From Candidatus Methanomethylicia archaeon (GTDB lineage Archaea > Thermoproteota > Methanomethylicia > Nezhaarchaeales > B40-G2): a DNA stretch of 23,779 nucleotides. Positions within the stretch are counted from its first letter, which is position 1. Every line of letters starts with the position of its first letter. The notes under the pieces were generated by a model. The model had not been told where the DNA came from. It worked only from the letters and a program-made list of their open reading frames with translations, and ran no database searches. The translations under genes and the position numbers were made by a program. Positions 932 through 16,362 of the stretch are shown here, in pieces. The stretch covers positions 1-23,779 of the forward strand of contig JAPDJI010000033.1 of the NCBI GenBank assembly GCA_029259155.1, written 5' to 3'.

Positions 932-1365
932 ACATGGACAAGGTTAAGCTTGTTAAGAAGGGGGAGGCGAAGCTTCAGAACTTAGTTGAAGCTGTTAAAA
1001 GCAGTGAAGGTTTCAGTGAGTGTGGTGCCATAGTTGCCTTTAACGGGGTTGTAAGGGGGGTAGGCCACGACGGATCTAAGGTGCTGAAGCTCTGTTATGA
1101 AGCTTACGAGGAAGCTGCTCTACAGAGCCTCAAAGCCATTAGGCAGAAGATACTGACAGGTAACCCAGAGGTTAAAGAGCTGGTAATATACCATGTCATC
1201 GATGAGCTGGAAAGCGGCGAGGACACAGTCTTCATAGTAGCAGCAGGAATGCATAGGAAGGAGACGTTTAAGGCTGTACTAGAGGCGCTAGAGATGGTTA
1301 AGACTGAGGCAGCTATATGGAAGAAGGAAGTTACAGTAAAAGGAGAAGCCTGGATAACTAGCTAG
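928..1365 (+). CDS. moaE: Molybdopterin synthase catalytic subunit MoaE
   Basis: GAIVAFNGVVR, L-x-YEAYEEAA, IYH-x-x-x-x-L-x-x-GE, HRKE-x-F, K-x-x-x-x-IWKKE. GTGA overlap with yjbQ; start may be ATG at 934. Confidence 0.92.
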   Translation: MNMDKVKLVKKGEAKLQNLVEAVKSSEGFSECGAIVAFNGVVRGVGHDGSKVLKLCYEAYEEAALQSLKAIRQKILTGNPEVKELVIYHVIDELESGEDTVFIVAAGMHRKETFKAVLEALEMVKTEAAIWKKEVTVKGEAWITS

Positions 1366-1418
1366 AGGCTCTAGGTTATTTTAAAGAGGAGGCTAAGAAA
1401 TAGGTCGGGAGAAGGCTC

Positions 1419-2630: not shown

Positions 2631-2642
2631 CGGTGCTAGTTT

Positions 2643-3434
2643 TTGACCGAGCTTAAATTAACCCTTATACAGTTCGCGAGGAGGTCTTCCCCCTCCGAAA
2701 ACCTTGAACGCATGTTAAGCCTGCTACGTTCATCTTCAAACACTCATTTAATCGTGCTTCCCGAGAACTGGTACTATACCGGCATACTCCCTATTGATGA
2801 GTATCGAAAGCTAACGGATAGACTTAGCGAGTTCGTAGAAGAGGAGGGGTCTACGCTCGTTATAGGTGCGCACTATGTGAGTGATGGAGAAACCGCTGTA
2901 AGTAGAGGCGCCGTAATATCAACGGGCAACGTTTGGATCGAATACGAGAAACACCATCCTTCCTCAGCGGTAGGTGAACGAAGCTTCCTAAGGCCTGGAG
3001 ACAAGATTGCCTTAACCACCGTGAAAGGTGTGAAAGTGGGGGTCGTGGTGTGCGTGGACTTAATGTACCCTGAAGTCGTTAGAGGGCTCGCATTAAGGGG
3101 AGCTGAGCTCGTAGTTAACCCAGCTAGTATACCTGTGGATAGGGTGAAACTATGGAGACATATAGGCGCTGCGAGAGCTGCCGAGAACACTTTATTCTTA
3201 GCTTCAGTGAACAACACGTCAACGATGTACCCTGATAGCAGGCCTGTAATGGGAGGAAGCTTCGTGGCTTCACCGGAGGGCTCAATAATACTTGATGCAG
3301 GGGAAGAGGAGGGTGCATATACTGTGACCTTGGATACAACGTGGATAGACACCGTGAGACGTAGGTGGAGCTTCCTGCTGGACGTAAAGTGCCGAAGACA
3401 AGAGTTTCTACGTAGATATTACTTGTTTAACTGA
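2643..3434 (+). CDS. Carbon-nitrogen hydrolase (nitrilase/amidase superfamily)
   Basis: Glu-Lys-Cys triad in LPEN, YEKHH and VCVDLMYPE; also ARAAEN and GGS-x-x-x-x-P-x-G. Confidence 0.9.
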   Translation: MTELKLTLIQFARRSSPSENLERMLSLLRSSSNTHLIVLPENWYYTGILPIDEYRKLTDRLSEFVEEEGSTLVIGAHYVSDGETAVSRGAVISTGNVWIEYEKHHPSSAVGERSFLRPGDKIALTTVKGVKVGVVVCVDLMYPEVVRGLALRGAELVVNPASIPVDRVKLWRHIGAARAAENTLFLASVNNTSTMYPDSRPVMGGSFVASPEGSIILDAGEEEGAYTVTLDTTWIDTVRRRWSFLLDVKCRRQEFLRRYYLFN

Positions 3435-3917
3435 GCGAAGAAGGACCTCTAGGCCTTCACCTCAGTTGCACATTATCTGGATCAAGCTGTTCTAAGCCCT
3501 GCTCTGTCTCAGTGGGCTTGTAATACCAGCTCTCTGGAGCCGGGAACATGGACAGCAACATCATTTAAAGTAGAGAGACAGGGCGGAATACCGTCTCAGT
3601 AGGGGTGAGCCACATGGACGATGTAGACAGGATGTGGACAGAACTTGAGACGTTTACATTAAACTAGCGCAGCACCAAGTCAGAGAGGCTTAGAGAGCTT
3701 GACCTGTAAGTTAAGGGTTACTAGCTTCAAGGTCTCTTGCACCAAAATCCATGCGTCAAAGTTGAAAAACAGTTTTAGCAGCCTTGATTGAGCCCTAAGA
3801 GCCAAGGTGTAGACGTATATATCTGGTCGAGGGAGGATAGCAGTTAAAGAAGTGGTAGACGTGATTATGATGAAACACTTAGCTAAAAACATATTCCTAT
3901 GTTGGAGGAAATCCTAG

Positions 3918-5483
3918 TTGATGCTGTGGAGCCATGACAGAGTACCTCGCACTATGTCTACTCAGCACCCAGACAACGCCAGAGCCCCCTACTGGTGTAG
4001 AAGGGAAGTGATACAGGGAGAGGACGAAGTGTATGAGGCATTCTTTGCCTTCAGCGAGCTTAAGTGCAACGAGGTGATGTGGGATTCTGAAGGCAAAGAT
4101 GTGGATACCCACGTAGTCAGGAAACTTTTGTCCTCACAGCCTGATTTCTTTAGGGAACACGTTCTTGGACAAGATCTTTTCCTAACCTATAGGGTTCCCA
4201 ATCCTAAGATAGAGGCCGCTGAGCGAAAGACTGTGGCTGAGACACTGTTAAACGTGGCTGTAGGATACGATGTAGCCTCAACTTTCTACGGGAAGGAGGT
4301 AGCACCTATCTTCGAGGTTATACTACCCTTCACCACTAGTTGGGAGGAAGTAGTTGGGTTACACCAATATTACAAGGCGTTGGTAAGCCACGTTGAGATT
4401 GCCAAGACTAAGTTGGCGGAGTGGATGGGTTGGTTTAACCCTAGAGAGGTTAACGTTATCCCCCTCATAGAGGATAAGGAAAGCCTACTTTCAGTCGATT
4501 CAATAGTGGCTCCGTACGTTAAGAAGATAGGTAGCAGAAGGATAAGGGTCTTCATAGCTAGGTCCGACCCAGCCTTAAACTACGGGTTAGCTTGCGCCGT
4601 GGTCCTAGCGAAGATAGCTCTCTCAAAGATGAAAAAGCTTGAAGTGGAAGAAGGAATAGAGATATACCCAATCATAGGGGTAGGCTCACTACCTTTCAGA
4701 GGGCATCTATCCCCGCGCAATCTTCAAGGCTTCATGAACGAGTATAGAGGAGTATACACGGTTACAGTACAATCAGCGCTAAAATACGACTACGCACTGG
4801 AAGAAACGCAGAGAACGGTGGATGAGCTCAACCGTAAGCTCCCTAACGGTGAAGCGGTAGAGCTCGAGGTAGAGGAAAACCTACTTCAAACGCTTGAGAA
4901 GCTTAAGTCAGCTTATGAAGAAGAGGTGGAGCGTCTAGCCCCACTGATCAATGCTGTGGCTTTATACGTACCTCCCAGAAGAGCTAGGAGACTTCATATA
5001 GGCCTCTTCGGCTATAGCAGAGGAGTTAGAGGAGTTAGACTTCCTAGAGCCATTCCGTTTACCTGCGCCCTCTACTCGCTCGGGATCCCTCCGGAGTTTA
5101 TAGGATTGAGAGCTTTAACCGATTTAAACGAAGCTGAATGGAGGACGTTAAGGCAAGGATACTTGAACATGATTAACGATCTACGCGAAGCTGCAGGATA
5201 CGTATCCTATAGAAACCTCGACCTGTTACAAGAGGAAGCAGGCAGGCTTGCCAAGAAAGTCTCGATGAGTGAAGAAAACCTGAAGAAGATTTTCGAGCTA
5301 TTTTTGGACAGCTTGAAAGTAGTCGAGGAAAACCTGAACGTTAAACTGGGTCCTAAAACTTACTCCGAAAAACGACATGAAAACACCGTCAACAACTTCC
5401 TACTGGCCTTCCTTGAAGGAGACAGCGAAGCTGCTAGAAGATATCTGCTTGAGGCAGCTATCATCAGGAGAAGCTTAGGCTAA
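3918..5483 (+). CDS. ppcA: Archaeal-type phosphoenolpyruvate carboxylase
   Basis: PRTMSTQHPDN, MWDSEGK, FIARSDPALNYG, GSLPFRGHL, TVQSA, RARRLHIGLFGYSR, LPRAI, C-terminal R-x-SLG. About 520 aa; SD GGAGG at 3904. Confidence 0.97.
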   Translation: MMLWSHDRVPRTMSTQHPDNARAPYWCRREVIQGEDEVYEAFFAFSELKCNEVMWDSEGKDVDTHVVRKLLSSQPDFFREHVLGQDLFLTYRVPNPKIEAAERKTVAETLLNVAVGYDVASTFYGKEVAPIFEVILPFTTSWEEVVGLHQYYKALVSHVEIAKTKLAEWMGWFNPREVNVIPLIEDKESLLSVDSIVAPYVKKIGSRRIRVFIARSDPALNYGLACAVVLAKIALSKMKKLEVEEGIEIYPIIGVGSLPFRGHLSPRNLQGFMNEYRGVYTVTVQSALKYDYALEETQRTVDELNRKLPNGEAVELEVEENLLQTLEKLKSAYEEEVERLAPLINAVALYVPPRRARRLHIGLFGYSRGVRGVRLPRAIPFTCALYSLGIPPEFIGLRALTDLNEAEWRTLRQGYLNMINDLREAAGYVSYRNLDLLQEEAGRLAKKVSMSEENLKKIFELFLDSLKVVEENLNVKLGPKTYSEKRHENTVNNFLLAFLEGDSEAARRYLLEAAIIRRSLG

Positions 5484-5755
5484 CGTGGAAAAACAATACG
5501 ATGCCGTAAGGACTTTTAACGGAGGCAACTTCTGTGTGTAATTCATGGTATAGAGGGCGTCCTCTAAAAACTCGAGAACGAGATAAAGATGACTTGAAAA
5601 CCCGTCTTTAAGGGTTTAGGCTCATAGGGAAGTGTAAGCACTTTAAGCTATGGTCTAGGAGATAGGAGATAAGCTGGTCTTCTGAGTGAGTGGATATCTT
5701 AAGGTAGAGGGTTTGTTCGCATCAAAGCGAGGCTCAAGAAATAAAGGACGAGAGA

Positions 5756-6553
5756 TTACCTTCCCTTCCACTCAGGCTTGCGCTTCTCTAGGAAGGCCTT
5801 AACACCTTCATTAAAGTCTTCGCTCGTACTACACAGCGTGAAGGCCTCTGTCTCGTAGGCCAGCCCAGACAGAAGCAAGGACTCCTGTGAGCGGTTGATA
5901 GCTGCCTTAACCATTTTAAGGGCTACGGGGCTCTTTGACTTTAACTTGTTGACCAGCTCTATGACGGTTTCCTTAAGTTTGTCGAAGGGCACGGTCTTGT
6001 TTACTATGCCTAATCTCTCTGCTTCCTTCGCGTCTATTAGGTCACCGGTCATAGCTAGCTCCATGGCCTTCTTGATACCTACATGTCTGGGAAGCAGCTG
6101 AGTTCCTCCTCCTCCAGGTATGGCGGCTATGTTTACCTCGGGTTGTCCAAACCTCGCATTCTCGGAGGCAATAGCTAAGTCACAGGTCATGGTAAGCTCG
6201 CAGCCTGCTCCAAGAGCATAACCGTTAACCATAGCTATGACCGGCTTACCCATGCCCCTAATCCTATTGAGTACGCGTTCACGGTAGCTGATGGTAAACT
6301 CCCGTCGCTTGATTGGAGGGAGCACTACAAACTGGTTGATGTCTATGCCTGCGCAGAATGCCTTCTCCCCCTCTCCAGTTATCACCAGGACCTTGATGTC
6401 CTCATCCTTCTCCGCGTCCTCTAACGCCGAGGCAAGCTCGTTGATAGCCTCAACGTTCAGCGTGTTGAGCACCTTGGGCCTGTTGATGGTTATCCAAGCT
6501 ACGCCGTCTTCTTTAACGTAGTTTATCTGACTGTAGCTGGACATGGAGGTCAC
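5756..6553 (-). CDS. Enoyl-CoA hydratase/isomerase (crotonase) family protein
   Basis: ITINRP, AFCAGIDI, KPVIAMVNGYALGAGCEL, FGQPE (both catalytic Glu present), PGGGGTQ, EG-x-x-AFLEKRKP. Start may be ATG at 6544. Confidence 0.95.
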   Translation of the reverse strand: MTSMSSYSQINYVKEDGVAWITINRPKVLNTLNVEAINELASALEDAEKDEDIKVLVITGEGEKAFCAGIDINQFVVLPPIKRREFTISYRERVLNRIRGMGKPVIAMVNGYALGAGCELTMTCDLAIASENARFGQPEVNIAAIPGGGGTQLLPRHVGIKKAMELAMTGDLIDAKEAERLGIVNKTVPFDKLKETVIELVNKLKSKSPVALKMVKAAINRSQESLLLSGLAYETEAFTLCSTSEDFNEGVKAFLEKRKPEWKGR

Positions 6554-6597
6554 TGAGCTACTCTATAATGGCTAGCGTTTTAAGTGTTCATGAAGAG

Positions 6598-7035
6598 CTA
6601 GGTTACTTTACGCAATAATTTCCTAACTTCGTTCATAAACCATTCTCTAGCTTCCTCTCCTTTACGTAGGTGAGCCAAGTCTTCCTCCAAGTTGCTCGGC
6701 TTAACCAAAACTATCCAGCCTTTTCCGTACGGGTCTTCGTTAATCAAGGAGGGCCTCCTCAAAACCTCCTCATTAACCTCAACCACCACTCCGGTAATAG
6801 GAGCGTTCACGAAGCCCACCCATTTACGTGATTCAAGGCTTACCAAAGGCTTCCCTCTCAATACGTGAGCGCCAGGCCTCAGAGGGTTGACATAGATGAT
6901 GCGCCCCGCTGCCCTCTGAGCCACGTCATCAACACCGATCCTCGCTAGATCACCCTCCACCTTAAGCCAAGCATGGGTGTCTTCATAGTAAAGGTCTTCT
7001 CGAAACTCGGCTTCGAGCTCCAACGCCCATTTCAC
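6598..7035 (-). CDS. Glycine-cleavage H-like lipoyl-carrier protein (paralog 1)
   Basis: DLYY-x-x-x-HAW, ARIGVDD, LESRKWVG (lipoyl Lys codon at 6825-6823), AP-x-x-G-x-V-x-x-VN, INEDPYGKGW. Likely true start is TTG at 7023, 8 nt after SD AGGTGA. Confidence 0.92.
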   Translation of the reverse strand: MKWALELEAEFREDLYYEDTHAWLKVEGDLARIGVDDVAQRAAGRIIYVNPLRPGAHVLRGKPLVSLESRKWVGFVNAPITGVVVEVNEEVLRRPSLINEDPYGKGWIVLVKPSNLEEDLAHLRKGEEAREWFMNEVRKLLRKVT

Positions 7036-8021
7036 CTATTCACGTCGATATACACCTGTGAACAACAAGTTGGAAGAAAGACATAGCTAAGATTAAAGGC
7101 TTTAGCCTTCTCCAAGGCCCTCTCTGAAGGGAAAGCTATGGCATTGACGCCTGCCTCAATGGCTAGTTTGTCGGTTTCATTCCTATGATCACCCTTAGGC
7201 CTAGCACAGCCTAGTGCTAGAGGTACATTAGGCATCATTAACCTTGCAGCTGCTAGCACTCTTACCACACTACTCGGGGAGGGGGGAGAAACGTTTTCCA
7301 TTGGTGTGCCCGGTAGAGGGATGAGGGCTATCACGACCACCGCTGAAGGGTTGTGTTCGGCGATTATCTTTAACGCTCTTAGTTCACCTCTCAGCTCACC
7401 GTAATGCAGTCCTACAAGCACATGGGGGATCATGGGTACCTTGTAGCGTTCAAGCAGCGTCAACGATTCTTCATAGTCCTTCACAGAAGCTTTGAGGTGG
7501 TAGACTTGTTTGATAGTCTCCTCGTCACCTATGATGTCTAGGAGAGCTCCGTCCACCCCTGCTTCAGCTAGCCCTTTGGCTACTTCTTCACTCACTAGGC
7601 CTGTATGGACAACCACTGTCAATCCGAGCTGCTTCTTGATCTTAGCTATAGTTTCAAGAAAGCGTTCGAGAGGCACTCTCCCGTTACTGAGGCATCCTCC
7701 ACTAACCAACACGCCGCGGCCGCCTTTCTCCTTCACTTTCTTACAAGCCTCAAATAAAGCGTCAGGAGTAATGGTGGGAATCATGGACGTTAAGAGCGAG
7801 GCGTCACAGTGTTCACATCGTAGAGCACAGAAATCCCCGGTTACCGAGAAAGATGGAAAAGGACAGCCAACGTTACGGTAATTGCTGATCTCATAGTAGA
7901 TGAAACTCGGAGTATACAGCAGTAGTTTCTTACCGAAGTTAGCCCAGCTAATCCTCCTCGAAGTAGCTAAGACCTCCTCCAAGCTGGTTTCGGCTGGGTC
8001 AAGAGCCTCTTCAGGCTTCAA
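7032..8021 (-). CDS. lipS1: Radical SAM protein, LipS1-type (Thermococcus-type lipoyl synthase subunit)
   Basis: CxxxCxxC (CALRCEHC) plus LGCARP and C-terminal TCCS, matching the GC(M/A)R and CC motifs described for LipS1. Flanked by two lipoyl-carrier genes. Confidence 0.82.
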   Translation of the reverse strand: MKPEEALDPAETSLEEVLATSRRISWANFGKKLLLYTPSFIYYEISNYRNVGCPFPSFSVTGDFCALRCEHCDASLLTSMIPTITPDALFEACKKVKEKGGRGVLVSGGCLSNGRVPLERFLETIAKIKKQLGLTVVVHTGLVSEEVAKGLAEAGVDGALLDIIGDEETIKQVYHLKASVKDYEESLTLLERYKVPMIPHVLVGLHYGELRGELRALKIIAEHNPSAVVVIALIPLPGTPMENVSPPSPSSVVRVLAAARLMMPNVPLALGCARPKGDHRNETDKLAIEAGVNAIAFPSERALEKAKAFNLSYVFLPTCCSQVYIDVNR

Positions 8022-8047
8022 GGTAGATGTCGAGCTAACTAACTAGA

Positions 8048-8063
8048 TGAAAAGCTATATATT
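8048..8063. promoter_or_regulatory. Divergent promoter region (BRE/TATA-like GAAAAGCTATATATTC) between lipS1 and carrier paralog 2
   Basis: Purine-rich run followed by TATATAT in the short divergent gap; could serve either strand. Confidence 0.45.
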
Positions 8064-8098
8064 CTACACGTCGGCTAATGGGTGCCGGGTGTAAGACC

Positions 8099-8542
8099 AT
8101 GGTAAAGGTAGACAAGTACGAGCTCCCTGACGACTTCTACTACTGGGGACGGAACCCTGACGGAAGCATTAGGGGGCGGACATGGGCAAAGCTTGAGCCA
8201 GACGGAAGGGTTAGAGTAGGCTTAACCGATAGAGGCCAAGACATGGCGGGCAAAATACTCTTCATTAGGCTTAGGCCTAAAGGTTCAGCGGTAGAGCAGG
8301 GTAAGCCTATAGGTACCATCGAGACAGCCAAGTGGACAGGTCCAATAGAGTCCCCGGTTAGCGGCACCATAGATGAGGTGAACGAGGAAATAAAGAGAAA
8401 GCCTGGACTGGTTAATGAGGACCCCTATGGGAAGGGTTGGATGGTAGTCATTAAGCCCTCTAAGCTAGATGAAGACCTTAAGTCCCTACTTCACGGAGAA
8501 GCTGCCGTAAAGTGGCTTGAAGAGGACTTAGCTAAGAAATAA
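8099..8542 (+). CDS. Glycine-cleavage H-like lipoyl-carrier protein (paralog 2)
   Basis: LPDDFYY, VRVGLTD, IETAKWTG (lipoyl Lys codon 8330-8332), SPVSG-x-I-x-EVN, VNEDPYGKGW. The ORF track starts at 8078; ATG 8099 fits family length better. Confidence 0.93.
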   Translation: MVKVDKYELPDDFYYWGRNPDGSIRGRTWAKLEPDGRVRVGLTDRGQDMAGKILFIRLRPKGSAVEQGKPIGTIETAKWTGPIESPVSGTIDEVNEEIKRKPGLVNEDPYGKGWMVVIKPSKLDEDLKSLLHGEAAVKWLEEDLAKK

Positions 8543-8562
8543 AAAAAGCTCAGCCTTTTTTT
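8541..8562. terminator. Bidirectional oligo-T terminator between convergent genes
   Basis: A7 (8541-8547), GCTCAGCC, T7 (8556-8562): one U-tract for each strand. Confidence 0.65.
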
Positions 8563-9289
8563 AAAGAGCCATGTTTACTATCTCCATTAAGTCATACAGC
8601 TTGATGGGCAGGTCCTCCCTGGCAATTATGTAGTAGAAGTTCATGTAACACGATGGGCAAGCCGACACTAAGGCTTCAGCTCCTGTTGGCAACACGTCGT
8701 TGCGTAGCCTAACCAGGCCGAGTTCCTGGGCCACGTCAGGATTAATGCCAAAGAGCCCTCCGCCTGCCCCACAGCATCTGGCAAGGTTTCTTGAGCTAGC
8801 CATTTCAACTAGCTCGAGCCCAGGTATAGCTTTCAGCACGTTCCTGGGGGCATCGTAGACGTTAGAGAGCCTACCCAGCTCGCATGGGTCATGGTAGGTC
8901 ACTTTCATCTTAAGCTCCTTGAACTTGACCTTTCCCTGCTTCAGAAGCTCTTCAATAAACTGGGAGGTATGTAGCACCTTGAAGCTTGGTTTAAGTTCCA
9001 GGTCCTCGAAGCCTTTAGTGAAGGCCCTATAACAGCCTGAACAGCCTGTCACCAATACGTCGGGCTTCTTCGAGTCGAGGACGCTAAGAACCCTCTTGGC
9101 GTTCTCCTTAGCCTCCTTCATCTGCCCAGTCAGTAATAGTAGGTCGCCGCAGCAGCCTTCTTGGTCGCCCAGCAGTATAGGGTTAACACCTATCTTTCTC
9201 AGCGCTTCCACCGAAGCCTTGGCAATGTCCGGGAACCTGAAGCTCGTTACGCAGCCTACCCAGTATAAGACGCGTTCCTCCGTCATCAC
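8561..9289 (-). CDS. Two-CCG-domain Fe-S protein (HdrB/HdrD/GlcF C-terminal type)
   Basis: Domain 1: YWVGC...EGCCG...TGCSGC. Domain 2: YHDPC...RCCGAGGG...SACPSC. All 10 Cys present. Start overlaps the upstream stop; SD GGAGGTG. Confidence 0.92.
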   Translation of the reverse strand: MMTEERVLYWVGCVTSFRFPDIAKASVEALRKIGVNPILLGDQEGCCGDLLLLTGQMKEAKENAKRVLSVLDSKKPDVLVTGCSGCYRAFTKGFEDLELKPSFKVLHTSQFIEELLKQGKVKFKELKMKVTYHDPCELGRLSNVYDAPRNVLKAIPGLELVEMASSRNLARCCGAGGGLFGINPDVAQELGLVRLRNDVLPTGAEALVSACPSCYMNFYYIIAREDLPIKLYDLMEIVNMAL

Positions 9290-11136
9290 TACGCACCTCC
9301 AAGCTCCTTTGCCAGCTCACCTCTAGGGGCGTTCTCTAGGCCGTAGATGTTGCCGTACTTCAGGATGTTCTCACCTAGTGCCTTGTGAACTGGGTTGATG
9401 TAACCTTTCTCCGCCAAGTCCCTCCTCATATGCTCTATTATATCCACAATCTTAATGCCGGGAGGACAGACTTGCATGCAGTGGCCGCACACCGTGCATA
9501 GGTCATAGGCCTGCCTCAGCGACTCAGAAGCCTCGACCTTATTTGTCAAGAAGTAGTAGGATAGGATCACCCTACCTCTGGCCCCCCTAGATTCAACGGT
9601 GAAGTAACTGAAGGTTGGGCATACAGCTCTGCAGAAGCCGCAGCGGAAACACCTTATAGATTCGTAAGCCCTCTTCAAGGCCTGGAACTCGCCCTTGAGC
9701 CTTGAGAGATAGGCGTAGAAGAAGTTGTCTGGGTCGTCCCGGGTCTCCACGTCCAAGCCCATCTTACCTGGGTTGAGGATGCCGTTAGGGTCTAGCGCCT
9801 TCTTTAGAGACCTCATGAGGTCTAGGCCTCGTCCAAGGGCCTCTCTAGCGAAAGGTATCTTAGATATGCCTATTCCATGCTCAGCCGAGAGAGCACCTCT
9901 ACGTTTAAGGACAACATCAAATATCTCCCTCTCCATCTTAAGCATCTTATTCCACTCTTCAGGGTTCGTCGGATCGATGATCATGGTCGGGTGGAGGTTT
10001 CCGTCGGCTGCGTGTCCGAAGGTGGGGCTTATTATCCCGTATTTCGCCGCTATGCTCTGAAAGTCCTTGATAGCGCCCTCGATCTCGGAGATCGGGACAC
10101 AGGGATCCTCAGCGAGGGGTATAAGGACGTAGCCCTCCTTTATCTTCGCCAACGACGGGACCAACGCCTTCCTAGCCGTCCAGAGCTTGAGGGATTCCTT
10201 AGGGTCGTCCGTCCAGTTAAAGTCCTTCGCCCCCATCTTCTTAGCTACCTCTTCAACCCTCCTCAGCTCGTCCTTAACGCTTCCCTCAGTCCCGTCCAGC
10301 TCCATAACTATGAAGCCTTCGCGGCTAGGCAAGCCAAGCTTAAAGACGTCGTTGACGACGTCGAGACATAGCTTGTCGAGCAGCTCCATGGCTGCTGGCC
10401 TCACCCCGGATAGTAAAATCTCGGTCACCGCCTTTCCAGCTTGGCTGAGCTGGTCAAAGAACATGGTTATCGTCATTCTATATCGAGGTATAGGAGCTAG
10501 CTTCAACAAGACCTCGGTAACTACGCCTAGCGTTCCTTCCGACCCTATGAAGAGCTGGGTCAAGTCATAGCCGGTAGACTGCTTTATCACCGGCCACCCA
10601 GTCCTCAACACCTCTCCGTTCGCTAACACCACCTCGAGGCCTAACACCCAGTTCCTCGTAGTGCCATATTTAGCTGCACGAACCCCGCTAGCGTTAGTAT
10701 TCACCATGCCTCCTATAGTACAGGCGGGGGAACTAGCAGGGTCAGGCGGGAAGAAGAAGCCGTACTTAGCTAATTCGGCATTAAGCCTGTCAAGGACGAT
10801 GCCGGGCTCCACGATAGCTACCAGATCATTTGGTCTAACTTCCTTAACTTTATTCATTCGTGTGAAGTCTATGATTATGCCTCCTCTCCTTGGCAGTATA
10901 GCGCCTATGACGCTGGTGCCCGCGCCTCTAGGGACGATTGGTATTTTGTTCTCGTTTGCATACTTCACTATCTCCACTACGTCATCCGTCGACTTAGGGA
11001 AAACTACCACGTCGGGTGTGTAGGTGAACGGGGACATGTCGCTTGAATAACAAAGCAGTGAGACCCTGTCGCTGATCACCCTGTCCTCTCCGACTATACC
11101 TTGGAGGTGTTCAGCCATCGAGGACAATTCATACAC
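9289..11136 (-). CDS. glcD: FAD-linked 2-hydroxyacid dehydrogenase (GlcD/D-lactate dehydrogenase family) fused to a C-terminal 2x[4Fe-4S] domain
   Basis: PRGAGTS, FFPPDPAS, TIGG-x-x-x-TNASG, KYG-x-TR, GYDL-x-x-LFIGSEGTLG, GHAADGNLH, SAEHGIG, LDP-x-x-ILNPGK; then CFRCGFCRAVCP and CTVCGHCMQVCP. Confidence 0.92.
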   Translation of the reverse strand: MYELSSMAEHLQGIVGEDRVISDRVSLLCYSSDMSPFTYTPDVVVFPKSTDDVVEIVKYANENKIPIVPRGAGTSVIGAILPRRGGIIIDFTRMNKVKEVRPNDLVAIVEPGIVLDRLNAELAKYGFFFPPDPASSPACTIGGMVNTNASGVRAAKYGTTRNWVLGLEVVLANGEVLRTGWPVIKQSTGYDLTQLFIGSEGTLGVVTEVLLKLAPIPRYRMTITMFFDQLSQAGKAVTEILLSGVRPAAMELLDKLCLDVVNDVFKLGLPSREGFIVMELDGTEGSVKDELRRVEEVAKKMGAKDFNWTDDPKESLKLWTARKALVPSLAKIKEGYVLIPLAEDPCVPISEIEGAIKDFQSIAAKYGIISPTFGHAADGNLHPTMIIDPTNPEEWNKMLKMEREIFDVVLKRRGALSAEHGIGISKIPFAREALGRGLDLMRSLKKALDPNGILNPGKMGLDVETRDDPDNFFYAYLSRLKGEFQALKRAYESIRCFRCGFCRAVCPTFSYFTVESRGARGRVILSYYFLTNKVEASESLRQAYDLCTVCGHCMQVCPPGIKIVDIIEHMRRDLAEKGYINPVHKALGENILKYGNIYGLENAPRGELAKELGGA

Positions 11137-11159
11137 CTGTCCCTCCTAGATTAAGTTCT

Positions 11160-11171
11160 TCATATATAAGA
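11160..11171 (-). promoter_or_regulatory. TATA-box candidate for the glcD-CCG operon
   Basis: Minus-strand CTTATATATG about 25-30 nt upstream of the GTG at 11136; SD AGGAGGG lies between them. Confidence 0.5.
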
Positions 11172-11211
11172 CTTCAATAGAAAATTAAAGAACCTGTAGA
11201 AAAGCGGAGAA

Positions 11212-11592
11212 TCAGTTTTTCTTCATACGTTCTCTCAAAAGCTCGCTTAAACCCTTGCGCTCCCCTTTCTTTTCATAGTATATCTTGGTGGGCATCCTAA
11301 CTCTCAACCCTAAGCTGAGGAAAATGCCGTAAAGTTCTTCACCTGTGATAGAGCCCACTATCTTGCCCTGCTTGATTAACCTCGCCAGCTCACGTACTAT
11401 CAGCTTAGTGACTTCTGGAAACTGCGCCTCAGCTGCTTCAAGCACCTCGATACCTCTACCAGCTAGGTGTTTGACCACTATGGATCTGGGGTCCTCCTCT
11501 ACGTCCTTTTTCTCCTTCTCAGTCACCATTTTACGTTGAAGCTCTAGCAGCTTCCTCATCTTCAACAGTTCCAGCTCATCGTCACTGGACGT
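11212..11592 (-). CDS. PDCD5-like double-stranded DNA-binding protein
   Basis: SSDDELELLKMRKLLELQRK N-terminal helix, followed by helical domain L-x-x-L-x-K-x-G-K-I-x-x-x-I-T-x-E-E-L. The ORF-track extension to 11715 looks non-coding. SD GAGGTGG lies 6 nt before an in-frame ACG at 11592. Confidence 0.8.
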   Translation of the reverse strand, partial: TSSDDELELLKMRKLLELQRKMVTEKEKKDVEEDPRSIVVKHLAGRGIEVLEAAEAQFPEVTKLIVRELARLIKQGKIVGSITGEELYGIFLSLGLRVRMPTKIYYEKKGERKGLSELLRERMKKN

Positions 11593-11713
11593 CGCGCACC
11601 ACCTCGATATAGAGTAAATGGTATAGTTATAACTCTCACGGTGTTCACTTGACCCAAAGGGTTTTTTAGTAGGCACAGTTTCCAAAACCAACGTTGAAGG
11701 CAGGAGAAATACC

Positions 11714-13237
11714 ATGGTGAAGAGGGAGGATTACGTAGACTTAGTATTTAGGGATGTGAAGGTAGACGAACACAACGCACCTCGCTTTTACCTAGATGGT
11801 GAGGAAGTGAATATTTGGGATGAGCCTTACATATATTATCACTCTAGGTCGCCCGCAGACTATGTACGTGAACATATAGTTCACTGCGAGGAAAAGGGCG
11901 TAGACCCCTTCCCAAGCGTCATTGGAAAACATAGGGAGAAGGAGCTTGTCAAGACCGCCCTCATGTCGGGGTCGGCCATCCTCTTCAAGGGGTTCAAGGG
12001 CTACGGTAAGACCACCTTCTCTAAGGCTATAGCTCAACTCTTACCTAGTAAGCTTCTAACCATCAAGGGATGTAAGATAAACGATGACCCCACCCATCCA
12101 ATATGCTTCTCCTGTAAACGTAAATTGACCGAGGAAGATAAGGTGGAGCTTACATGGGTTCCTAGAGTCTGGGTCCGTATCCCCGGAGACCCTATGATGA
12201 CTACGAGGCAGCTGATAGGAGGCATATCCATACAGAAGATTAGAGAGGGCTACGACCTAGATCATCCTGAGGTCTTCATACCTGGAAGGGCGCTGAAGGC
12301 AAACCGCGGTGTAGGATACTTTGACGAGCTGGGAGCTATACCTTCACAGCTACAGACCCTCCTACATGAACTCATAGAGGAAGGGCAGGTAACCACTACT
12401 GAAGGTGAGATCGTCCCGTTAAAGGTAGATTCGCTAGTGATAGCAGCCACTAACCCAGCCAACTATAGGGGCACCAACCCCATTAAGGAACCTCTCCTCG
12501 ATAGAATGGAAGTCATCGAGATAGGGCCACCTGAAACCTTGGAGGAAGAGGTCGAGATAGGTGTAAAGAACATGTTCATAGTCAGGGAAAAAGGCGAAAA
12601 CCCCTACATACCGCCTTGGCATGCACGTGTCCTAGCAAGGATCGTCAGGATAGCTAGGGATAAGGATAGATACGATATAGCCAGAAGGATAACCAGCGAG
12701 CCTTCATGTAGAGCCACCATTAAGCTTTTCGATCACGTTAGGTCCTCTGCCCTTAGAGACGGTAGAAGAGCGCCTCTCCTCAAGGATTATGGCCCATCTT
12801 ATGACCATGTAAAGCTAGCCCTTCTTGGAAGAATGGAAGTTAGCTACGAGGTAAAGGATAGGAAGGAGGAGATGATAGAGAGGCTCGTAGAGGAAGCTTT
12901 GAATATCTCTTTAAGAGAGCTCTATAACGCGATTCCTCAGGAAAACTTCGACGAGTTCCTAAAGGCGCTTAAAGCGTCAGCTATAAGCAATTACCGTATA
13001 CCAATATCTTTAGACTTCGTAGAGAAGCTCAAAGCTGAAAAGGCCATAAGAGAAGTGGTGTGCAAGCTTTTACCTGAAGCGTCTGAGAATGACGAATACT
13101 TCCTCTCAGCCGTTGAAATGGTATTAGAGGCCCTTTCAAGGTGCACTAACCTAATTAAAAGGGAGGGAGAAAGCTACTTGTTTAAGGATCTAGGAGTTGG
13201 AGGGGTTGAAGCCGGAGTGCAAACTATGCGAGGCTAA
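11714..13237 (+). CDS. AAA+ ATPase, ChlI/BchI-MoxR-like
   Basis: Walker A GFKGYGKT; ChlI-like GC-x-x-N-x-x-P-x-x-P-x-C-x-x-C insert; PG-x-x-x-KANRG; Walker B GYFDEL; ATNP; PLLDR arginine finger. SD AGGAG. Confidence 0.88.
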   Translation: MVKREDYVDLVFRDVKVDEHNAPRFYLDGEEVNIWDEPYIYYHSRSPADYVREHIVHCEEKGVDPFPSVIGKHREKELVKTALMSGSAILFKGFKGYGKTTFSKAIAQLLPSKLLTIKGCKINDDPTHPICFSCKRKLTEEDKVELTWVPRVWVRIPGDPMMTTRQLIGGISIQKIREGYDLDHPEVFIPGRALKANRGVGYFDELGAIPSQLQTLLHELIEEGQVTTTEGEIVPLKVDSLVIAATNPANYRGTNPIKEPLLDRMEVIEIGPPETLEEEVEIGVKNMFIVREKGENPYIPPWHARVLARIVRIARDKDRYDIARRITSEPSCRATIKLFDHVRSSALRDGRRAPLLKDYGPSYDHVKLALLGRMEVSYEVKDRKEEMIERLVEEALNISLRELYNAIPQENFDEFLKALKASAISNYRIPISLDFVEKLKAEKAIREVVCKLLPEASENDEYFLSAVEMVLEALSRCTNLIKREGESYLFKDLGVGGVEAGVQTMRG

Positions 13238-14471
13238 TAAGACCCTTTCCCAACTAATGGGGAGGGAAAACCTAGAGTCCCTACTCTATAGTCTCCTTAA
13301 CCCAGGCTACGCCCAGCTAAAGGATAGGATGAATAGGCCTAAGTTTAACTTGAGAAGCCTGCTCGAGAGGTTCCTCGACGAGAACAACCTTGACGACTTC
13401 GTGTTCAAGCAAGGTCTCTACATGAAGCAGTATCCTAGGGTTATCTGTAGCTGGGCTTATGACGAAAATTTCCGCAGAGCCAAGGAGAGAGCCTGGAGAG
13501 AACTGCTAGAGAAACTAGAAAAAGGAGAGATAAAGCCTTCAGACATACCCCTCCAACAACTCATAGAATACTTCCATGAAGAGCTCTTAGCTGCCTTAGA
13601 GGAGGAAGGCTACGTTAAACGAGAACGTGTGTCGCGTAGCTTTAGCCACTTTATGCACGTGCTACTCTTCACCGCTCGCGGAGAAGAGCTAATAGCTGAA
13701 AAGGTACTTGAAGAGGCGTTCAAGGACATGAGAGCGGCGAGTATCGGCCCACACGAATCTGACGAGACGGGGATCGGAATAACTCCTAGCTCAGTGCTCA
13801 TGGACTACGACGAGTATAAGCACACCTTCGACATGTTGGATATACCTGAGACCATGATAAACGCTGCCATAAAGCACCCTGAAGATCTAGACTTAACTGA
13901 AGATGTACTGAAAGCAAGGGTGCCCCTCCATAAGTCTAGGGCTTCTAATGTGATCTTAATTGACAAGTCTGGATCGATGTCCATGGGCTGTAGGATAGTG
14001 GGAGCGGTTGAGGCAGCACTAGGTTTACGGAGGTTGCTTGAAGCAGAGTATAAGGACGATAGGTTATGGGTAGTGGCCTACGACCATAACCTATACCCGC
14101 TTGAGCCTGGAGAGGTAGCTAATATATGGCCTTACGGCTGGACCGATATAGGCCAAGCCTTAGACTACGCCAGGCAGCTCCTATCCAGGGAGGAAGGAAG
14201 CAAGAACATCTTCCTGATAACCGACGGCCAGCCCACCACTACCTCTCATCCAGGCCAAACACCGCTTCAAAGCGCCTTGAGAGCATCAAACATGTTAAGG
14301 GAAGAGGGCATCAAACTAAACATAATAATGCTGGATAATAGGAGCCCCAGCCTTAGAAGCCTATGTGAAAAGATGGCTGAGCTGGCTGGAGACGCTAACA
14401 TAGCGTTTGTCGACAACCCCCTCAACCTTAAGTCATTCATAATAAAGAACTACAAGGAAATCAAGCGCTGA
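13197..14471 (+). CDS. von Willebrand factor A (VWA) domain protein, partner of the AAA+ ATPase
   Basis: MIDAS motif LIDKSGSM, WTDI-x-x-AL, FLITDGQP; DI-x-x-T-x-x-NA pre-VWA motif. Overlaps the ATPase 3' end. Confidence 0.88.
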   Translation: MEGLKPECKLCEANKTLSQLMGRENLESLLYSLLNPGYAQLKDRMNRPKFNLRSLLERFLDENNLDDFVFKQGLYMKQYPRVICSWAYDENFRRAKERAWRELLEKLEKGEIKPSDIPLQQLIEYFHEELLAALEEEGYVKRERVSRSFSHFMHVLLFTARGEELIAEKVLEEAFKDMRAASIGPHESDETGIGITPSSVLMDYDEYKHTFDMLDIPETMINAAIKHPEDLDLTEDVLKARVPLHKSRASNVILIDKSGSMSMGCRIVGAVEAALGLRRLLEAEYKDDRLWVVAYDHNLYPLEPGEVANIWPYGWTDIGQALDYARQLLSREEGSKNIFLITDGQPTTTSHPGQTPLQSALRASNMLREEGIKLNIIMLDNRSPSLRSLCEKMAELAGDANIAFVDNPLNLKSFIIKNYKEIKR

Positions 14472-16362
14472 AGGGGACGGCTTTCAAGGCTTCCTTTGCA
14501 ATGTACGCCGCGACGGGGCACACCTCATTACATATCCCACAGCCTGTACACCTTTCAGGGTCAACCCTAATGGTACCGTTAAGTTCAACGCAGCCAACTG
14601 GGCATTGGACCACGCACGAGCCACAACGGTTACAATACAAAGTTCTAGCCACTAGCTTAACGAGGTTTCGTAAAGCTTTCTCAGCCTCTTCCCTAGATTG
14701 CGCCTTAACCGTTAGCTTCCCCTTCACGCTTAATGTCGCACTCCAACCCTCCCCCTTAATCAAGAGGGCGTTCATCACCTTTCTTGCTCGAGCACCTCCT
14801 AATGTAGAGGCTAAGGCCTCCAGCGAGGACGTGTCAGGTGGAGGATGGAGCATAACTTCTAGGAGAGGTTCTTGGAGACAAAGAGAGCTCCTTTCAGTTA
14901 ATGATACCGTTAAGCCCACGCGTGAAACCTTCACTGAAGACCCCACCAGCTCTCTAACCCCAAGCCTCTCCGCCAACTTCTTCTGATCTCCAGGTAGTTG
15001 CCTCCACCTCCAGAAACCGTAGTTAACCCAAGCTTCAGGTAAACCTTTATCTCTAGCCCAGCGTGTCAGCCAGTCCTCCCATGTCTTCCATAGTTCAGGG
15101 TGAAGCTCCTCTACCAACTTAAACTCCGCTAGCTCGCATGATGGACACAGCCAGCAGCCAACCCTATCGAAGCCAGCTCTATAAAGTGGGTTAGCGTTCA
15201 CCTTCTCCTTCATTAAGTAGAGCCATACCTGAAGCGAAGACCAATCATTAATAGGTGAAGCTGTCAAAGAGCCTTTTATCCACCAGCTCTTCGACAAGGA
15301 GGGGGCCCTAGCTCTATTGAAGGATTCATACCTACGTTGTCCTAGAAAAGTCAAGGTACCTTTAAGGTAGGTCTGCTTAAGGAGCCTAGTTATCGGTATG
15401 AGCTTACAAACCTTACAGCACCAGCGATAGTCTCTTGAGGGAGGGCCGAAGGACTCTAGAGACTCCCAGAAAGCTTCGCCAGCCTCAGCTTTAAGCAGGT
15501 CTAAGTCAAAAGCTTCCGCTACTTCTTCCACGTGTTTAACGGTCTCAGGCATCTCCAGCCCTGTATCGTTGAAAAGCATAGGTAAGTCTCCAAGCTCTTT
15601 AAGACATAGTAGGAGGCAGGCTAGGCTATCCTTACCTCCGGAGAAGGAGATTATCTTAGGTCCCAAGTACTCCCTACTAACGCCTTTAAGGAAGGCGCGC
15701 GACCTAGCCTCAGCCTTCTCAAGAGCTCTTCGATTAGCCTCTAAAGCCTTGCTCCACGAGGCCGTAGCTTTCTTAACATGTGGTTTCTGTGGGCGCCAGA
15801 CCTTAACCACCTTTAAGCCCTCGCTCAACCACACTGCTAACCCAATAGGTAGCCCCCCGCTGGAGACAAGGTAAACATAGTGTCCTTCTTGGTTAGGCAG
15901 TTCCCCTTGCTTAACATCACTTCTCGAAAGCTTCCTCCACTGCTCCACCTTAACCTTCTCAAGCCGAGCCCAGTAACCTTCACCCTCGCTCCAAAGCCTA
16001 GCCGCCCCCTCAGCTGACAACTTAAATCTCCACTTTGAAAGCTCAGGGTTAAAGTACAGGGTTCCTATAGGCCAACCATCAACTATTACTTCGTCAGCCT
16101 GATCTACGTAAGCAACCTTATTCATCAACACCAGCTTACCCTGAGGTAAAAGCACTTGAGCCGCTCTTTCCCCTTCCTCTTCAGCTACAACCGTCCTGAT
16201 TATCCTTAAGTCCCTCTTGAAGCTTGGCCTAACGTCCTTTGGAGGCGAGGCGTGGAAACTCGTACCTTGTTCTCCGCATAGCCCACATTTAGGTTCTAGA
16301 AGCGGGACGTTGCAGTATCCACACCAGTATAGCTGAGCAGCTATTCTCCAAGGTCCTTTCAT
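14461..16362 (-). CDS. Phosphoadenosine-phosphosulfate-reductase-family multidomain protein (Zn ribbon, PUA-like region, PP-loop, C-terminal 2x[4Fe-4S])
   Basis: N-terminal WCGYCNVPL...CGLCG; SFSGGKDS; DTGLE; RWCCKVCK; GQRRYES-x-x-R; RVGCWLCP; C-terminal CNRCGSCVVQCP and CTGCGICNEVCP. Confidence 0.88.
   Translation of the reverse strand: MKGPWRIAAQLYWCGYCNVPLLEPKCGLCGEQGTSFHASPPKDVRPSFKRDLRIIRTVVAEEEGERAAQVLLPQGKLVLMNKVAYVDQADEVIVDGWPIGTLYFNPELSKWRFKLSAEGAARLWSEGEGYWARLEKVKVEQWRKLSRSDVKQGELPNQEGHYVYLVSSGGLPIGLAVWLSEGLKVVKVWRPQKPHVKKATASWSKALEANRRALEKAEARSRAFLKGVSREYLGPKIISFSGGKDSLACLLLCLKELGDLPMLFNDTGLEMPETVKHVEEVAEAFDLDLLKAEAGEAFWESLESFGPPSRDYRWCCKVCKLIPITRLLKQTYLKGTLTFLGQRRYESFNRARAPSLSKSWWIKGSLTASPINDWSSLQVWLYLMKEKVNANPLYRAGFDRVGCWLCPSCELAEFKLVEELHPELWKTWEDWLTRWARDKGLPEAWVNYGFWRWRQLPGDQKKLAERLGVRELVGSSVKVSRVGLTVSLTERSSLCLQEPLLEVMLHPPPDTSSLEALASTLGGARARKVMNALLIKGEGWSATLSVKGKLTVKAQSREEAEKALRNLVKLVARTLYCNRCGSCVVQCPVGCVELNGTIRVDPERCTGCGICNEVCPVAAYIAKEALKAVPFSA

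Follow-up and report, generated by a model that had tools for sequence, protein, structure and literature searches.

Three pairings close to the one considered here have already been published: LbpA with sHdr (2018), HdrD-GlcD on CoM-S-S-CoB (2019) and GcvH with an HdrB-hydrogenase (2022). Specifically, in those parts of the three papers that are covered here, sHdr was proposed to reduce the lipoamide of LbpA, with electrons coming from a CCG enzyme (Cao 2018, eLife, PMC6067878), an HdrD-GlcD complex was proposed to act on CoM-S-S-CoB in Verstraetearchaeota and related archaea (Hua 2019, PMC6783470), and in Culexarchaeia, archaea without CoM/CoB, GcvH was suggested to carry the disulfide for the HdrB of 'Ehe', a membrane [NiFe]-hydrogenase/HdrBC cluster (Kohtz 2022, PMC9723716). 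Here we describe a further candidate pairing, encoded in a stretch of 23,779 nucleotides from a Candidatus Methanomethylicia archaeon (henceforth the window; it is the entire contig C21, JAPDJI010000033.1, of a host assembly of 1.55 Mb in 47 contigs that is 94% complete). In this stretch two genes for small lipoyl carriers (carriers a and b) flank a gene for the lipoyl synthase subunit LipS1 and lie next to the genes of a CCG-only iron-sulfur protein and of a GlcD-type FAD 2-hydroxyacid dehydrogenase (Table 1).

We lean towards the view that the CCG module, joined to the 2-hydroxyacid oxidoreductase, has these lipoyl carriers as its dithiol/disulfide partner; this view builds on domains and motifs, on the orphan status of the carriers, on their affinity to LbpA and on a recurrent gene linkage. 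Many anaerobic archaea and bacteria encode numerous Hdr-like or CCG proteins without CoM-S-S-CoB or DsrC, and the partner with which these proteins turn over is an old question; equally old is the question of which acceptor the CCG subunits of lactate and glycolate dehydrogenases use. The host genome offers a clean test case, given its 13 CCG proteins, its full lipoate assembly set and three carriers as the sole lipoyl targets found. What appears to be new here is the link of LbpA-type carriers to GlcD/CCG enzymes: across open-access full texts and bioRxiv (supplements aside) we found no paper joining LbpA or a lipoate-binding protein with GlcD, or with HdrD and lactate, and among the papers listed GcvH was joined with HdrB in a relevant way only in Kohtz 2022. 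In Cao 2018 (PMC6067878), the words 'lactate' and 'glycolate' each have 0 occurrences.

Both window carriers combine the GCV_H fold (PF01597) with the lipoyl lysine, in a column that is K in 76 of the 77 GcvH-like rows aligned. Their scores against the gcvH equivalog TIGR00527 lie below its cut-off of 115.85 bits (91.7 for carrier a and 93.0 for carrier b), and a third carrier of the host genome, encoded on contig C4, lies above it (124.9 bits); the cut-off of the broad subfamily PRK01202 (117 bits) is reached by both window carriers (121.7 and 117.0 bits). The lipoyl-site motif is E-S/T-x-K-W in the window carriers, as against ESVKA in canonical H proteins. We placed 77 GcvH-fold rows in a maximum-likelihood tree, where one side of a branch with 100/98 support is made up of the 16 rows that have this Lys-Trp pair (henceforth KW carriers), the KW label itself being one column of the alignment that underlies the tree. 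Bacterial carriers encoded in sHdr type I-like and type II-like gene clusters also fall in the KW clade, the reference LbpAs having been identified through gene context and the Cys hallmark rather than by experiment. The sister group (97/89) of the group of carrier a consists of bacterial carriers encoded at three loci, namely in Burkholderiales (with Fer4_8 and CCG genes upstream), in Alphaproteobacteria and in Anaerolineae (with genes for a CCG protein, EtfB, EtfA, a Fer4_8/CCG protein, two carriers and LplA), and carrier b, also in the KW clade, is sister (99/92) to a carrier of genome G007 that is encoded beside HdrA and DsrEFH. The original prediction had left the placing of the carriers relative to GcvH and LbpA to a phylogeny; judged by this tree, which sets them apart from bona fide GcvH, carriers a and b are LbpA-type lipoyl carriers.

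Two further features of the carriers bear on this classification. In the alignment, bacterial KW rows have an N-terminal Cys and a glycine-flanked C-terminal Cys, and archaeal rows are without both; N- and C-terminal Cys are the hallmark of LbpA, with an exception for 'some archaeal LbpAs' (Cao 2018, PMC6067878, in the part covered here). Carrier a is Cys-free, as is carrier b when read from the ATG at 8099 (MVKVDKYE...), which is probably its true start because orthologues start at MVKV. KW carriers are also less acidic than GcvH-type carriers, with pI of 5.4-9.0 (6.0 for carrier a) vs 4.5-5.0, in agreement with a charge difference between carrier types reported in the part of a 2026 preprint covered here.

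When carrier b was searched against species genomes, one relative was 91% identical and the other 79 loci were at most 50% identical; 29 of these 79, placed in the tree as a control, comprised 5 KW carriers and otherwise canonical ones, and CCG-type matches lay within 6 kb at only three of the 79 loci (L067, L069 and L075). All matches of carrier b in a sequence search of the PDB (13/13) are named H protein, with no LbpA entry among them, and the closest public relatives in our searches bear the labels 'uncultured Nitrososphaerota archaeon' and 'Candidatus Nezhaarchaeota archaeon'. Among other GcvH-fold proteins, those with Met replacing the lipoyl Lys ('MR') were seen at L163, L165, L167 and L170 (genus g43, family f23; e.g., L163:13109-13579); their genes lie directly upstream of GlcD-HdrD, with further GcvH-like/HdrD-like pairs and an HdrE-like membrane subunit nearby.

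As regards glycine cleavage and the 2-oxoacid complexes, the window carriers are true orphans. Profile searches of the host assembly, at 94% completeness such that absence from it is no proof, gave three GCV_H genes and no match to GCV_T, GDC-P, the 2-oxoacid_dh E2 acyltransferase, DsrC, MCR_alpha (McrA), DsrE or TusA. No lipoyl/biotinyl domains other than those of the three GcvH-fold proteins were found in this genome, the sole Biotin_lipoyl match being carrier b itself, and the T, P and L proteins with which a GcvH works were not found alongside them. The lipoamide dehydrogenase profile TIGR01350 (lipoamide_DH; cut-off 408.8 bits) matched only one gene, which lies next to the third carrier and scores 138.7 bits; we considered it as lpd and rejected it, given its 389.7 bits against TIGR03385, which place it in the CoADR/Nox family. 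The original prediction had named a complete glycine cleavage system elsewhere in the genome as a finding that would speak against it, and had listed gcvT, gcvP, lpd, mcr and dsrC among the genes to look for; none of these was found in the host assembly (0 matches each for GCV_T and GDC-P), and lipS2 and lplAB, also on its list, are present.

The loss of GcvT is lineage-wide. Among the 45 genomes of the class that are at least 85% complete, GCV_H was found in 45/45 and GCV_T in 31/45, with 0/4 in the window's own family (f1) and 0/6 in family f3. McrA was found in 26/45 and in none of the genomes of families f1, f2, f4, f6, f7 and f8. As for the gene context of LbpA, i.e., shdr genes with DsrE/TusA, no shdr-type cluster was found at the 13 CCG loci of the host genome.

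Lipoate assembly is encoded in full. LipS1 scores 242.9 bits against NF053742 (cut-off 230) and has the radical SAM motif CxxxCxxC at residue 65 (CALRCEHC), and LipS2 (327.8 bits), LplA and LplB are encoded on contig C4. With the complete LplA/LplB/LipS1/LipS2 set the carriers would be lipoylated, and because no other lipoyl target was found while the full set is kept, lipoate in this genome appears to be made only for the three small carriers. The adjacency of LipS1 and carrier is family-specific and no general rule: at 20 LipS1 loci from 19 relatives a carrier adjoins LipS1 in 2/20, both in family f1, and LplA adjoins it in 16/20. The host genome also has a second LipS2-like radical SAM gene (contig C1:33318-34265, seen at L005/L010), at 238.6 bits below the cut-off of 270. 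In genome G003 stop codons interrupt every reading frame of the LipS1 gene between the two carriers (L043:2831-3784); a search at E<=1e-30 gave no intact LipS1 in that genome, and the broken gene is either a pseudogene or an assembly error.

The CCG protein has two CCG domains and exactly 10 Cys (positions 13, 46, 47, 83, 86, 136, 172, 173, 211 and 214), matching the ten cluster cysteines of the HdrB/HdrD type; among 32 homologues nine of them do not vary, and C13 is kept in at least 90%. The protein is similar to HdrB or to the C-terminal half of HdrD, and scores 57.6 bits against the HdrB equivalog TIGR03288 (cut-off 345.15). Its best NCBIfam match is to the C-terminal half of TfrB (E 4e-44, 150.9 bits against a cut-off of 385), and its sequence matches in the PDB are led by 9ojn_A, an 'Iron-sulfur-binding reductase' (E 1.6e-21), followed by HdrB chains. 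The GlcD-type protein carries FAD_binding_4 (E 1.5e-47) and FAD-oxidase_C (E 5.1e-61) domains plus Fer4_8, with CxxCxxCxxxC motifs at residues 496 and 547. Its PDB matches include a glycolate oxidase (9qgz, E 1.2e-90), LctD (7qh2_C, 3.2e-78), a subunit of an electron-confurcating lactate dehydrogenase, and a D-lactate dehydrogenase (8jdc, 1.4e-75). It stays below the glcD equivalog cut-off (TIGR00387, 441.9 bits vs 567.9), so the substrate is not fixed by sequence; D-lactate/pyruvate is the most likely candidate. A LarA-type racemase fragment and LutAB genes suggest that the host organism handles lactate. The racemase fragment lies in the window itself (23269-23745, minus strand), 12 kb from GlcD, and is a C-terminal LarA_C domain (nickel-dependent lactate/2-hydroxyacid racemase) truncated by the contig end.

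Genes for CCG proteins recur beside KW carriers across the phylum. We searched a profile built from the 16 KW carriers against 401 genomes of the phylum, fetched and annotated the 20 best loci outside the class, and tallied neighbours by alignment at all fetched loci of at least 5 kb, using FAD-domain-only queries for GlcD. A CCG open reading frame (ORF) lay within 3 kb of 22 of the 39 KW carrier genes, and both a CCG and a GlcD-FAD ORF near 14 of them (20 and 13 of 37 after removal of two loci chosen via CCG matches); the loci were picked by profile score and are not independent, several coming from a single genus, and the statistic is not phylogeny-corrected. Of 97 non-KW GcvH-like genes, 18 have a CCG ORF and 4 have both ORFs at this distance. 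At the level of families, GlcD and CCG genes occur within 3 kb of a KW carrier in 5 of 16 archaeal families (f1, f2, f23, f31 and f45), and any CCG gene near a KW carrier in 10 of the 16.

The arrangements vary. In G151 and G130 (f31) the carrier, GlcD and HdrD genes follow one another on one strand with gaps of ~50 nt, in G269 (f45) a LipS1-HdrD-GlcD-HdrB-HdrC series is divergent from the carrier, and in four genomes of one genus of f23 an OsmC-carrier pair is convergent with HdrD-GlcD. Within the class, G004 (f2) has EtfB-EtfA-HdrA-HdrD-carrier and then a 903-aa GlcD-Fer4-CCG fusion, all on one strand. The carrier gene of G302 (f48) overlaps a CCG-only gene; in G062 (f11) the carrier gene stands 6 nt ahead of a CCG-only LutA-like gene, and after another 3 nt comes a LutB-like gene with LUD and Fer4_8 domains. 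LutAB oxidises lactate and shares only the Fer4/CCG module with GlcD. Two GlcD subtypes are found among the carrier-linked enzymes, and the label 'near a KW carrier' has to change 8 times on a tree of 34 CCG proteins (i.e., it is polyphyletic), so the association of carriers with GlcD/CCG, as judged from these sequences, is not one inherited block and was acquired more than once.

Other arrangements were seen beside carriers. In G001 the interval between carrier b and LipS1 (L012:7826-9423) houses a further thiol/disulfide pair, namely a 214-aa thioredoxin-fold protein and a 315-aa flavoprotein that resembles thioredoxin reductase. In G007, a genome that also has McrA, genes for DsrE, HdrA/MvhD (780 aa), a KW carrier, DsrE, DsrE and DsrH follow on one strand (L048, 6907-11361), which resembles an sHdr-like sulfur-relay context inside a methanogen-related lineage. 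In a Bathyarchaeia record (L067, 8566-16926) CoADR/Lpd-like and GcvH genes converge on HdrB-HdrC, beside MvhG-MvhA-HdrA/MvhD, so carrier-Hdr linkage occurs outside the window's class as well.

Within the host genome, 24 CCG-domain matches fall in 13 proteins, yet none of the known disulfide substrates that we searched for (including DsrC and McrA) was found. The CCG loci include EtfBA with HdrD-like and HdrA/MvhD proteins, two HdrB-HdrC pairs with HdrA-like genes, an HdrA/HdrD/HdrE-like set, LutA-LutB (contig C12) and a second GlcD with an HdrD-like protein, truncated by a contig end. At the last of these (L033, contig C14:1-2274) the second GlcD-like gene stands at the contig start and is followed by a 385-aa Fer4_8/CCG HdrD-like gene. 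The third carrier, GcvH-type by its clade (support 98/93), heads a minus-strand gene series on contig C4 (locus L009, C4:22000-41999, about 700-14500 within the locus). The series, a membrane [NiFe]-hydrogenase / complex-I-like operon, next encodes a CoADR-like disulfide reductase, a polyferredoxin and antiporter subunits, then an HdrB-like protein (292 bits against TIGR03288) and the large subunit of a [NiFe]-hydrogenase, in which both Cys pairs are present (RVCGICSDAH and DPCIACTDR); divergent from it are HdrD-like, LipS2, OsmC, LplA and LplB genes, with HypF next door. The carrier-hydrogenase-HdrB arrangement recurs in families f4, f7 and f8. Each carrier locus of the host genome abuts a CCG gene. 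By a rough estimate that assumes random gene order, with 13 CCG genes among ~1,450 ORFs of at least 100 aa, a CCG gene is a direct neighbour with a probability of ~0.018 per gene, or ~3e-4 for both carrier loci, and adjacency by chance is unlikely within this genome. The reservation in the original prediction that the linkage could be chance is thereby weakened, while its ground for that reservation stands, the window genes being indeed convergent and in separate units.

The gene calls in the window were checked against the ORF list and by Pfam and NCBIfam scans of the window proteins. They bear out what had been read from the letters, i.e., two GcvH-like carriers with the lipoyl lysine in both flanking LipS1 and, convergent with them, the FAD 2-hydroxyacid dehydrogenase with its 2x[4Fe-4S] domain plus a two-CCG protein. 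The reported lack of gcvT, gcvP, E2 and sHdr genes likewise holds for the window, where a Pfam scan of 22 ORFs gave no GcvT, GcvP, E2 or HdrA-type match, and no OsmC or peroxiredoxin gene. The genes of carrier a and LipS1 share 4 nt, and the GlcD gene precedes the CCG gene with a 1-nt overlap. The convergent spacer has the pattern A5-GCTCAGC-T7, with a T-tract on either strand, and resembles the 3' end of both transcription units; it may act as a terminator for them. Given convergent stop codons with T-tracts on both strands, carrier b and the CCG/GlcD genes form separate transcription units. The TATA-like element between LipS1 and carrier b may be an archaeal promoter. Scans with bacterial-type models were uninformative, with 1 promoter-like site vs 5.1 expected (none in 8022..8077) and 4 terminator-like sites vs 5.3 expected. 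At least half of the words of window positions 5700-11800 are present in six DNA runs (hydrothermal vent and sediment metagenomes), and no RNA run was listed as containing this part.

Table 1 Features of the lipoyl carrier and oxidoreductase locus (positions in the window).
Feature	Position	Strand	Basis
Carrier a, LbpA-type lipoyl carrier, GcvH fold, 145 aa	6598..7035	-	Pfam GCV_H E 3e-33, motif ESRKW
LipS1-type radical SAM lipoyl synthase subunit, 329 aa	7032..8021	-	NCBIfam NF053742, Pfam Radical_SAM + BATS
Divergent intergenic region LipS1/carrier b, 56 nt	8022..8077		A/T-rich TATA-like element (aaaagctatatatt), direct sequence reading
Carrier b, LbpA-type lipoyl carrier, 154-aa ORF	8078..8542	+	Pfam GCV_H E 1.2e-36, motif ETAKW
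Convergent spacer between stop codons, 18 nt	8543..8560		T-tracts on either strand, direct sequence reading
CCG-only iron-sulfur protein, 242 aa, two complete CCG domains	8561..9289	-	Pfam CCG E 3.5e-32
GlcD-type FAD 2-hydroxyacid dehydrogenase + 2x[4Fe-4S] ferredoxin domain, 615 aa	9289..11136	-	Pfam FAD_binding_4, FAD-oxidase_C, Fer4_8

Elsewhere in the window, an AAA-ATPase / VWA-domain gene pair lies on the plus strand (11714-14471), and the minus strand (14461-16362) encodes a 633-aa protein that combines a PAPS-reductase domain with a 2x[4Fe-4S] ferredoxin domain at its C terminus.

If the carriers are indeed the partner of the CCG module, LipS1, LipS2 and LplA/LplB would build lipoamide on the two LbpA-type carriers, which would not serve glycine cleavage and would act as a protein-bound dithiol/disulfide co-substrate of HdrB/HdrD-like CCG sites. 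At the window locus the CCG protein would be the terminal subunit of the GlcD-type enzyme, and the electron route would run between the 2-hydroxyacid/2-oxoacid couple, FAD, the two [4Fe-4S] clusters, the CCG clusters and the lipoyl group of the carrier. The carriers may also be linked to an OsmC-type peroxidase and to the CoADR/Nox-family NAD(P)H disulfide reductase of contig C4, and other candidate partners are the HdrB-containing membrane [NiFe]-hydrogenase and HdrA/Etf modules.

The energetics of this route depend on its direction. Standard potentials are ~-190 mV for lactate/pyruvate, ~-290 mV for lipoamide and ~-140 mV for CoM-S-S-CoB. On these values the transfer from lactate to the lipoyl disulfide is uphill by ~100 mV, i.e., endergonic, so that either an exergonic sink is needed to pull it or electrons flow in reverse. 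One candidate sink would be OsmC-type peroxide reduction, another confurcation with Etf/HdrA, at which the G004 operon hints; the reverse reaction, in which a dihydrolipoyl carrier would reduce pyruvate or another 2-oxoacid, would be downhill. The original idea that lipoyl carriers replace CoM-S-S-CoB/DsrC as the redox partner thus gains from their orphan status, LbpA-type affinity and recurrent linkage as far as the partner is concerned, and loses as far as the lactate-to-lipoyl direction is concerned.

This uphill step is one of several points that weigh against the carriers as partners of the CCG module, another being the non-independent sample of loci described above. In the window carrier b and the CCG/GlcD genes are convergent and separately transcribed. 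Across the phylum, 17/39 KW carriers have no CCG gene within 3 kb, and some stand in housekeeping contexts (L160 and L171). Within family f1, the gene order dsDNA-binding gene-GlcD-CCG-carrier b-LipS1-carrier a-enoyl-CoA hydratase is kept in 4/4 genomes, one of them with the thioredoxin-type insertion and another with the broken LipS1 gene, and phosphoenolpyruvate carboxylase follows where the contig continues (the host genome and G001); this is whole-region synteny and therefore adds no weight, so that the neighbourhood conservation for which the original prediction had called is informative not within f1 but at the level of the phylum, through the five families and their varied arrangements. 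The closest orthologous pair outside f1 (G004:C26; GlcD at 839 bits, CCG protein at 63% identity) has no carrier in the 2 kb to the contig end. Finally, 9ojn_A, the closest relative of the CCG protein with a solved structure, bears only the name of an iron-sulfur-binding reductase, so similarity does not fix a disulfide substrate.

Some of these points can also be read as signs that the genes are neighbours without direct electron transfer, an alternative that we regard as rather unlikely. GlcD-Fer4/CCG would then be a self-contained D-lactate/glycolate dehydrogenase with another acceptor (quinone, ferredoxin or a thiol), and the carriers and LipS1 would serve other partners, i.e., the HdrB-hydrogenase or HdrABC/Etf modules. 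The separate 3' ends of the convergent window genes, the orthologous pair that stands without a carrier and the 17 KW carriers without a CCG neighbour all fit such an arrangement, as do the tie of the third carrier to a hydrogenase/HdrB operon and not to GlcD, and the wide occurrence of GlcD with HdrD/GlcF-like proteins away from carriers (e.g., in the methanogenic family f5, where P0004-like HdrD proteins occur in 23/24 genomes and all 9 carriers in the tree are non-KW). Mere neighbourhood does not, however, account for same-strand operons and fusion contexts in four other families, nor for the association of two GlcD subtypes plus LutAB with polyphyletic CCG proteins, and no alternative disulfide substrate (DsrC, McrA) was found in the host genome that would take the place of the carriers. 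We consider it less probable still that the dihydrolipoyl carriers have an antioxidant role in which they feed an OsmC/Ohr-type hydroperoxide reductase, with GlcD/CCG as at most one of several reductants. OsmC stands directly beside KW carriers at 6/20 phylum loci (L163, L164, L165, L167, L168 and L170, in two families), the order LipS2-OsmC-LplA is found in the host genome, G001 and G003, and an AhpC/TSA gene lies within ~120 nt of the carrier in L171; a strongly exergonic peroxide sink would moreover lift the thermodynamic objection to lactate oxidation. There are also precedents, cited in the part of the 2026 preprint covered here, i.e., HdGcvH_1 as a probable donor to OsmC, Nyvltova 2016 and Cussiol 2010. 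By contrast, the window has no OsmC or peroxiredoxin gene, the OsmC of the host sits with LipS2/LplA beside the GcvH-type third carrier and not the two KW carriers, and the repeated CCG linkage would be left unexplained; an antioxidant role is compatible with carriers that partner the CCG module, and does not exclude it.

Two further alternatives concern the kind of carrier. An sHdr-like sulfur oxidation, in which the lipoyl arms handle sulfane sulfur or its electrons, is very improbable here. The carriers do fall in the LbpA-type clade, where bacterial carriers from sHdr contexts are the sister of carrier a, lipoate assembly by LipS1/LipS2/LplAB is the route associated with sHdr, the host genome has HdrB/HdrC/HdrA-like genes, and G007 shows DsrE-HdrA-carrier-DsrE-DsrE-DsrH. 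Yet the host genome gave no DsrE or TusA, sulfur transferases of a kind that reportedly always accompany sHdr-LbpA systems (Tanabe 2024, in the part covered here); its 13 CCG loci hold no shdrC1B1AHC2B2-type cluster, and the window carriers lack the two conserved LbpA cysteines. We give the least credence to the idea of ordinary H proteins of glycine cleavage whose T, P and L partners lie in an unassembled part of the genome. The GCV_H fold, the intact lysine, the PRK01202 scores (at or above the cut-off) and an assembly that is only 94% complete would allow it, whereas GcvT was found neither in the 4 genomes of f1 nor in the 6 of f3, GcvP was not found in the host genome, and both carriers lie below the gcvH equivalog cut-off and across the 100/98 branch from the canonical GcvH genes in the tree. 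Where GcvH and GcvT were both searched for, the top-scoring canonical GcvH genes of the class, for their part, adjoin GcvT (in G031, G037, G023, G029, G015, G018, G021, G025, G027 and G044).

If the carriers are the substrate of the CCG enzymes, lipoic acid would acquire a function in anaerobic energy metabolism as a diffusible, protein-borne redox shuttle, in addition to its place in the 2-oxoacid and glycine complexes and in sulfur oxidation. It is possible, though we doubt it, that a small pool of lipoyl proteins (LbpA-type plus GcvH-type) is the missing 'heterodisulfide' of Mcr-less, DsrC-less archaea and a common currency of their CCG enzymes. Such a pool would join GlcD-type and LutAB-type lactate oxidation, Etf/HdrA bifurcating modules and an ion-translocating HdrB-[NiFe]-hydrogenase; the CoADR-like NAD(P)H reductase and the OsmC peroxidase would belong to the same lipoyl-based redox network, and the long-sought physiological acceptor of LutA/GlcF-type CCG subunits would be identified.

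How, then, does this locus compare with known systems? GlcDEF glycolate oxidase and LutABC/LldEFG are glycolate and lactate oxidation complexes. The window enzyme is like them in combining an FAD or LUD catalytic subunit with Fer4 and CCG modules, its NCBIfam matches to GlcD, GlcF and LdhH lying below the cut-offs, and it differs in that there is no GlcE, the domains are split otherwise and a lipoyl carrier is adjacent (in G062, directly upstream of LutA-LutB). With the HdrD-GlcD complex (Hua 2019, in the part covered here) it shares a GlcD-type FAD dehydrogenase with an Fe-S/CCG module and a proposed coupling of a hydroxyacid to disulfide chemistry. There, however, the disulfide is CoM-S-S-CoB in organisms with Mcr, whereas here McrA was not found in the host genome and a lipoyl protein is the candidate; in addition, GlcD here carries the ferredoxin domain and the CCG half is encoded as a protein of its own.

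Two systems with H-type proteins come close from another side. In Trichomonas vaginalis, OsmC reportedly detoxifies peroxide together with the H and L proteins of an incomplete glycine decarboxylase complex (Nyvltova 2016), so that an orphan H-type lipoyl protein likewise serves as a redox shuttle apart from glycine cleavage, and OsmC genes adjoin carriers or lipoate-assembly genes in the host and its relatives; by contrast, no true L protein was found in the host genome, the window is without OsmC and the recurrent partner is a CCG enzyme. The Ehe/HdrBC plus GcvH arrangement (Kohtz 2022, in the part covered here) is matched by the contig C4 cluster of the host, and also in f4, f7 and f8, but its carrier is a GcvH-type paralogue, while the window carriers are LbpA-type and stand beside GlcD/CCG, not a hydrogenase. 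Finally, the likeness to sHdr-LbpA (Cao 2018, in the part covered here) consists of LbpA-type carriers on the GcvH fold, an LplA-type ligase with LipS1/LipS2 and a gene tie to enzymes whose CCG domains hold non-cubane clusters. The host genome nonetheless gave no DsrE, TusA or shdrC1B1AHC2B2 cluster, and its window carriers are without the two conserved Cys; the neighbour here is a GlcD-type FAD dehydrogenase, which is in none of the three cluster groups given in that part of Cao 2018, and the host comes from an Mcr-less family of a class that includes methanogens, recovered from hydrothermal vent and sediment metagenomes.

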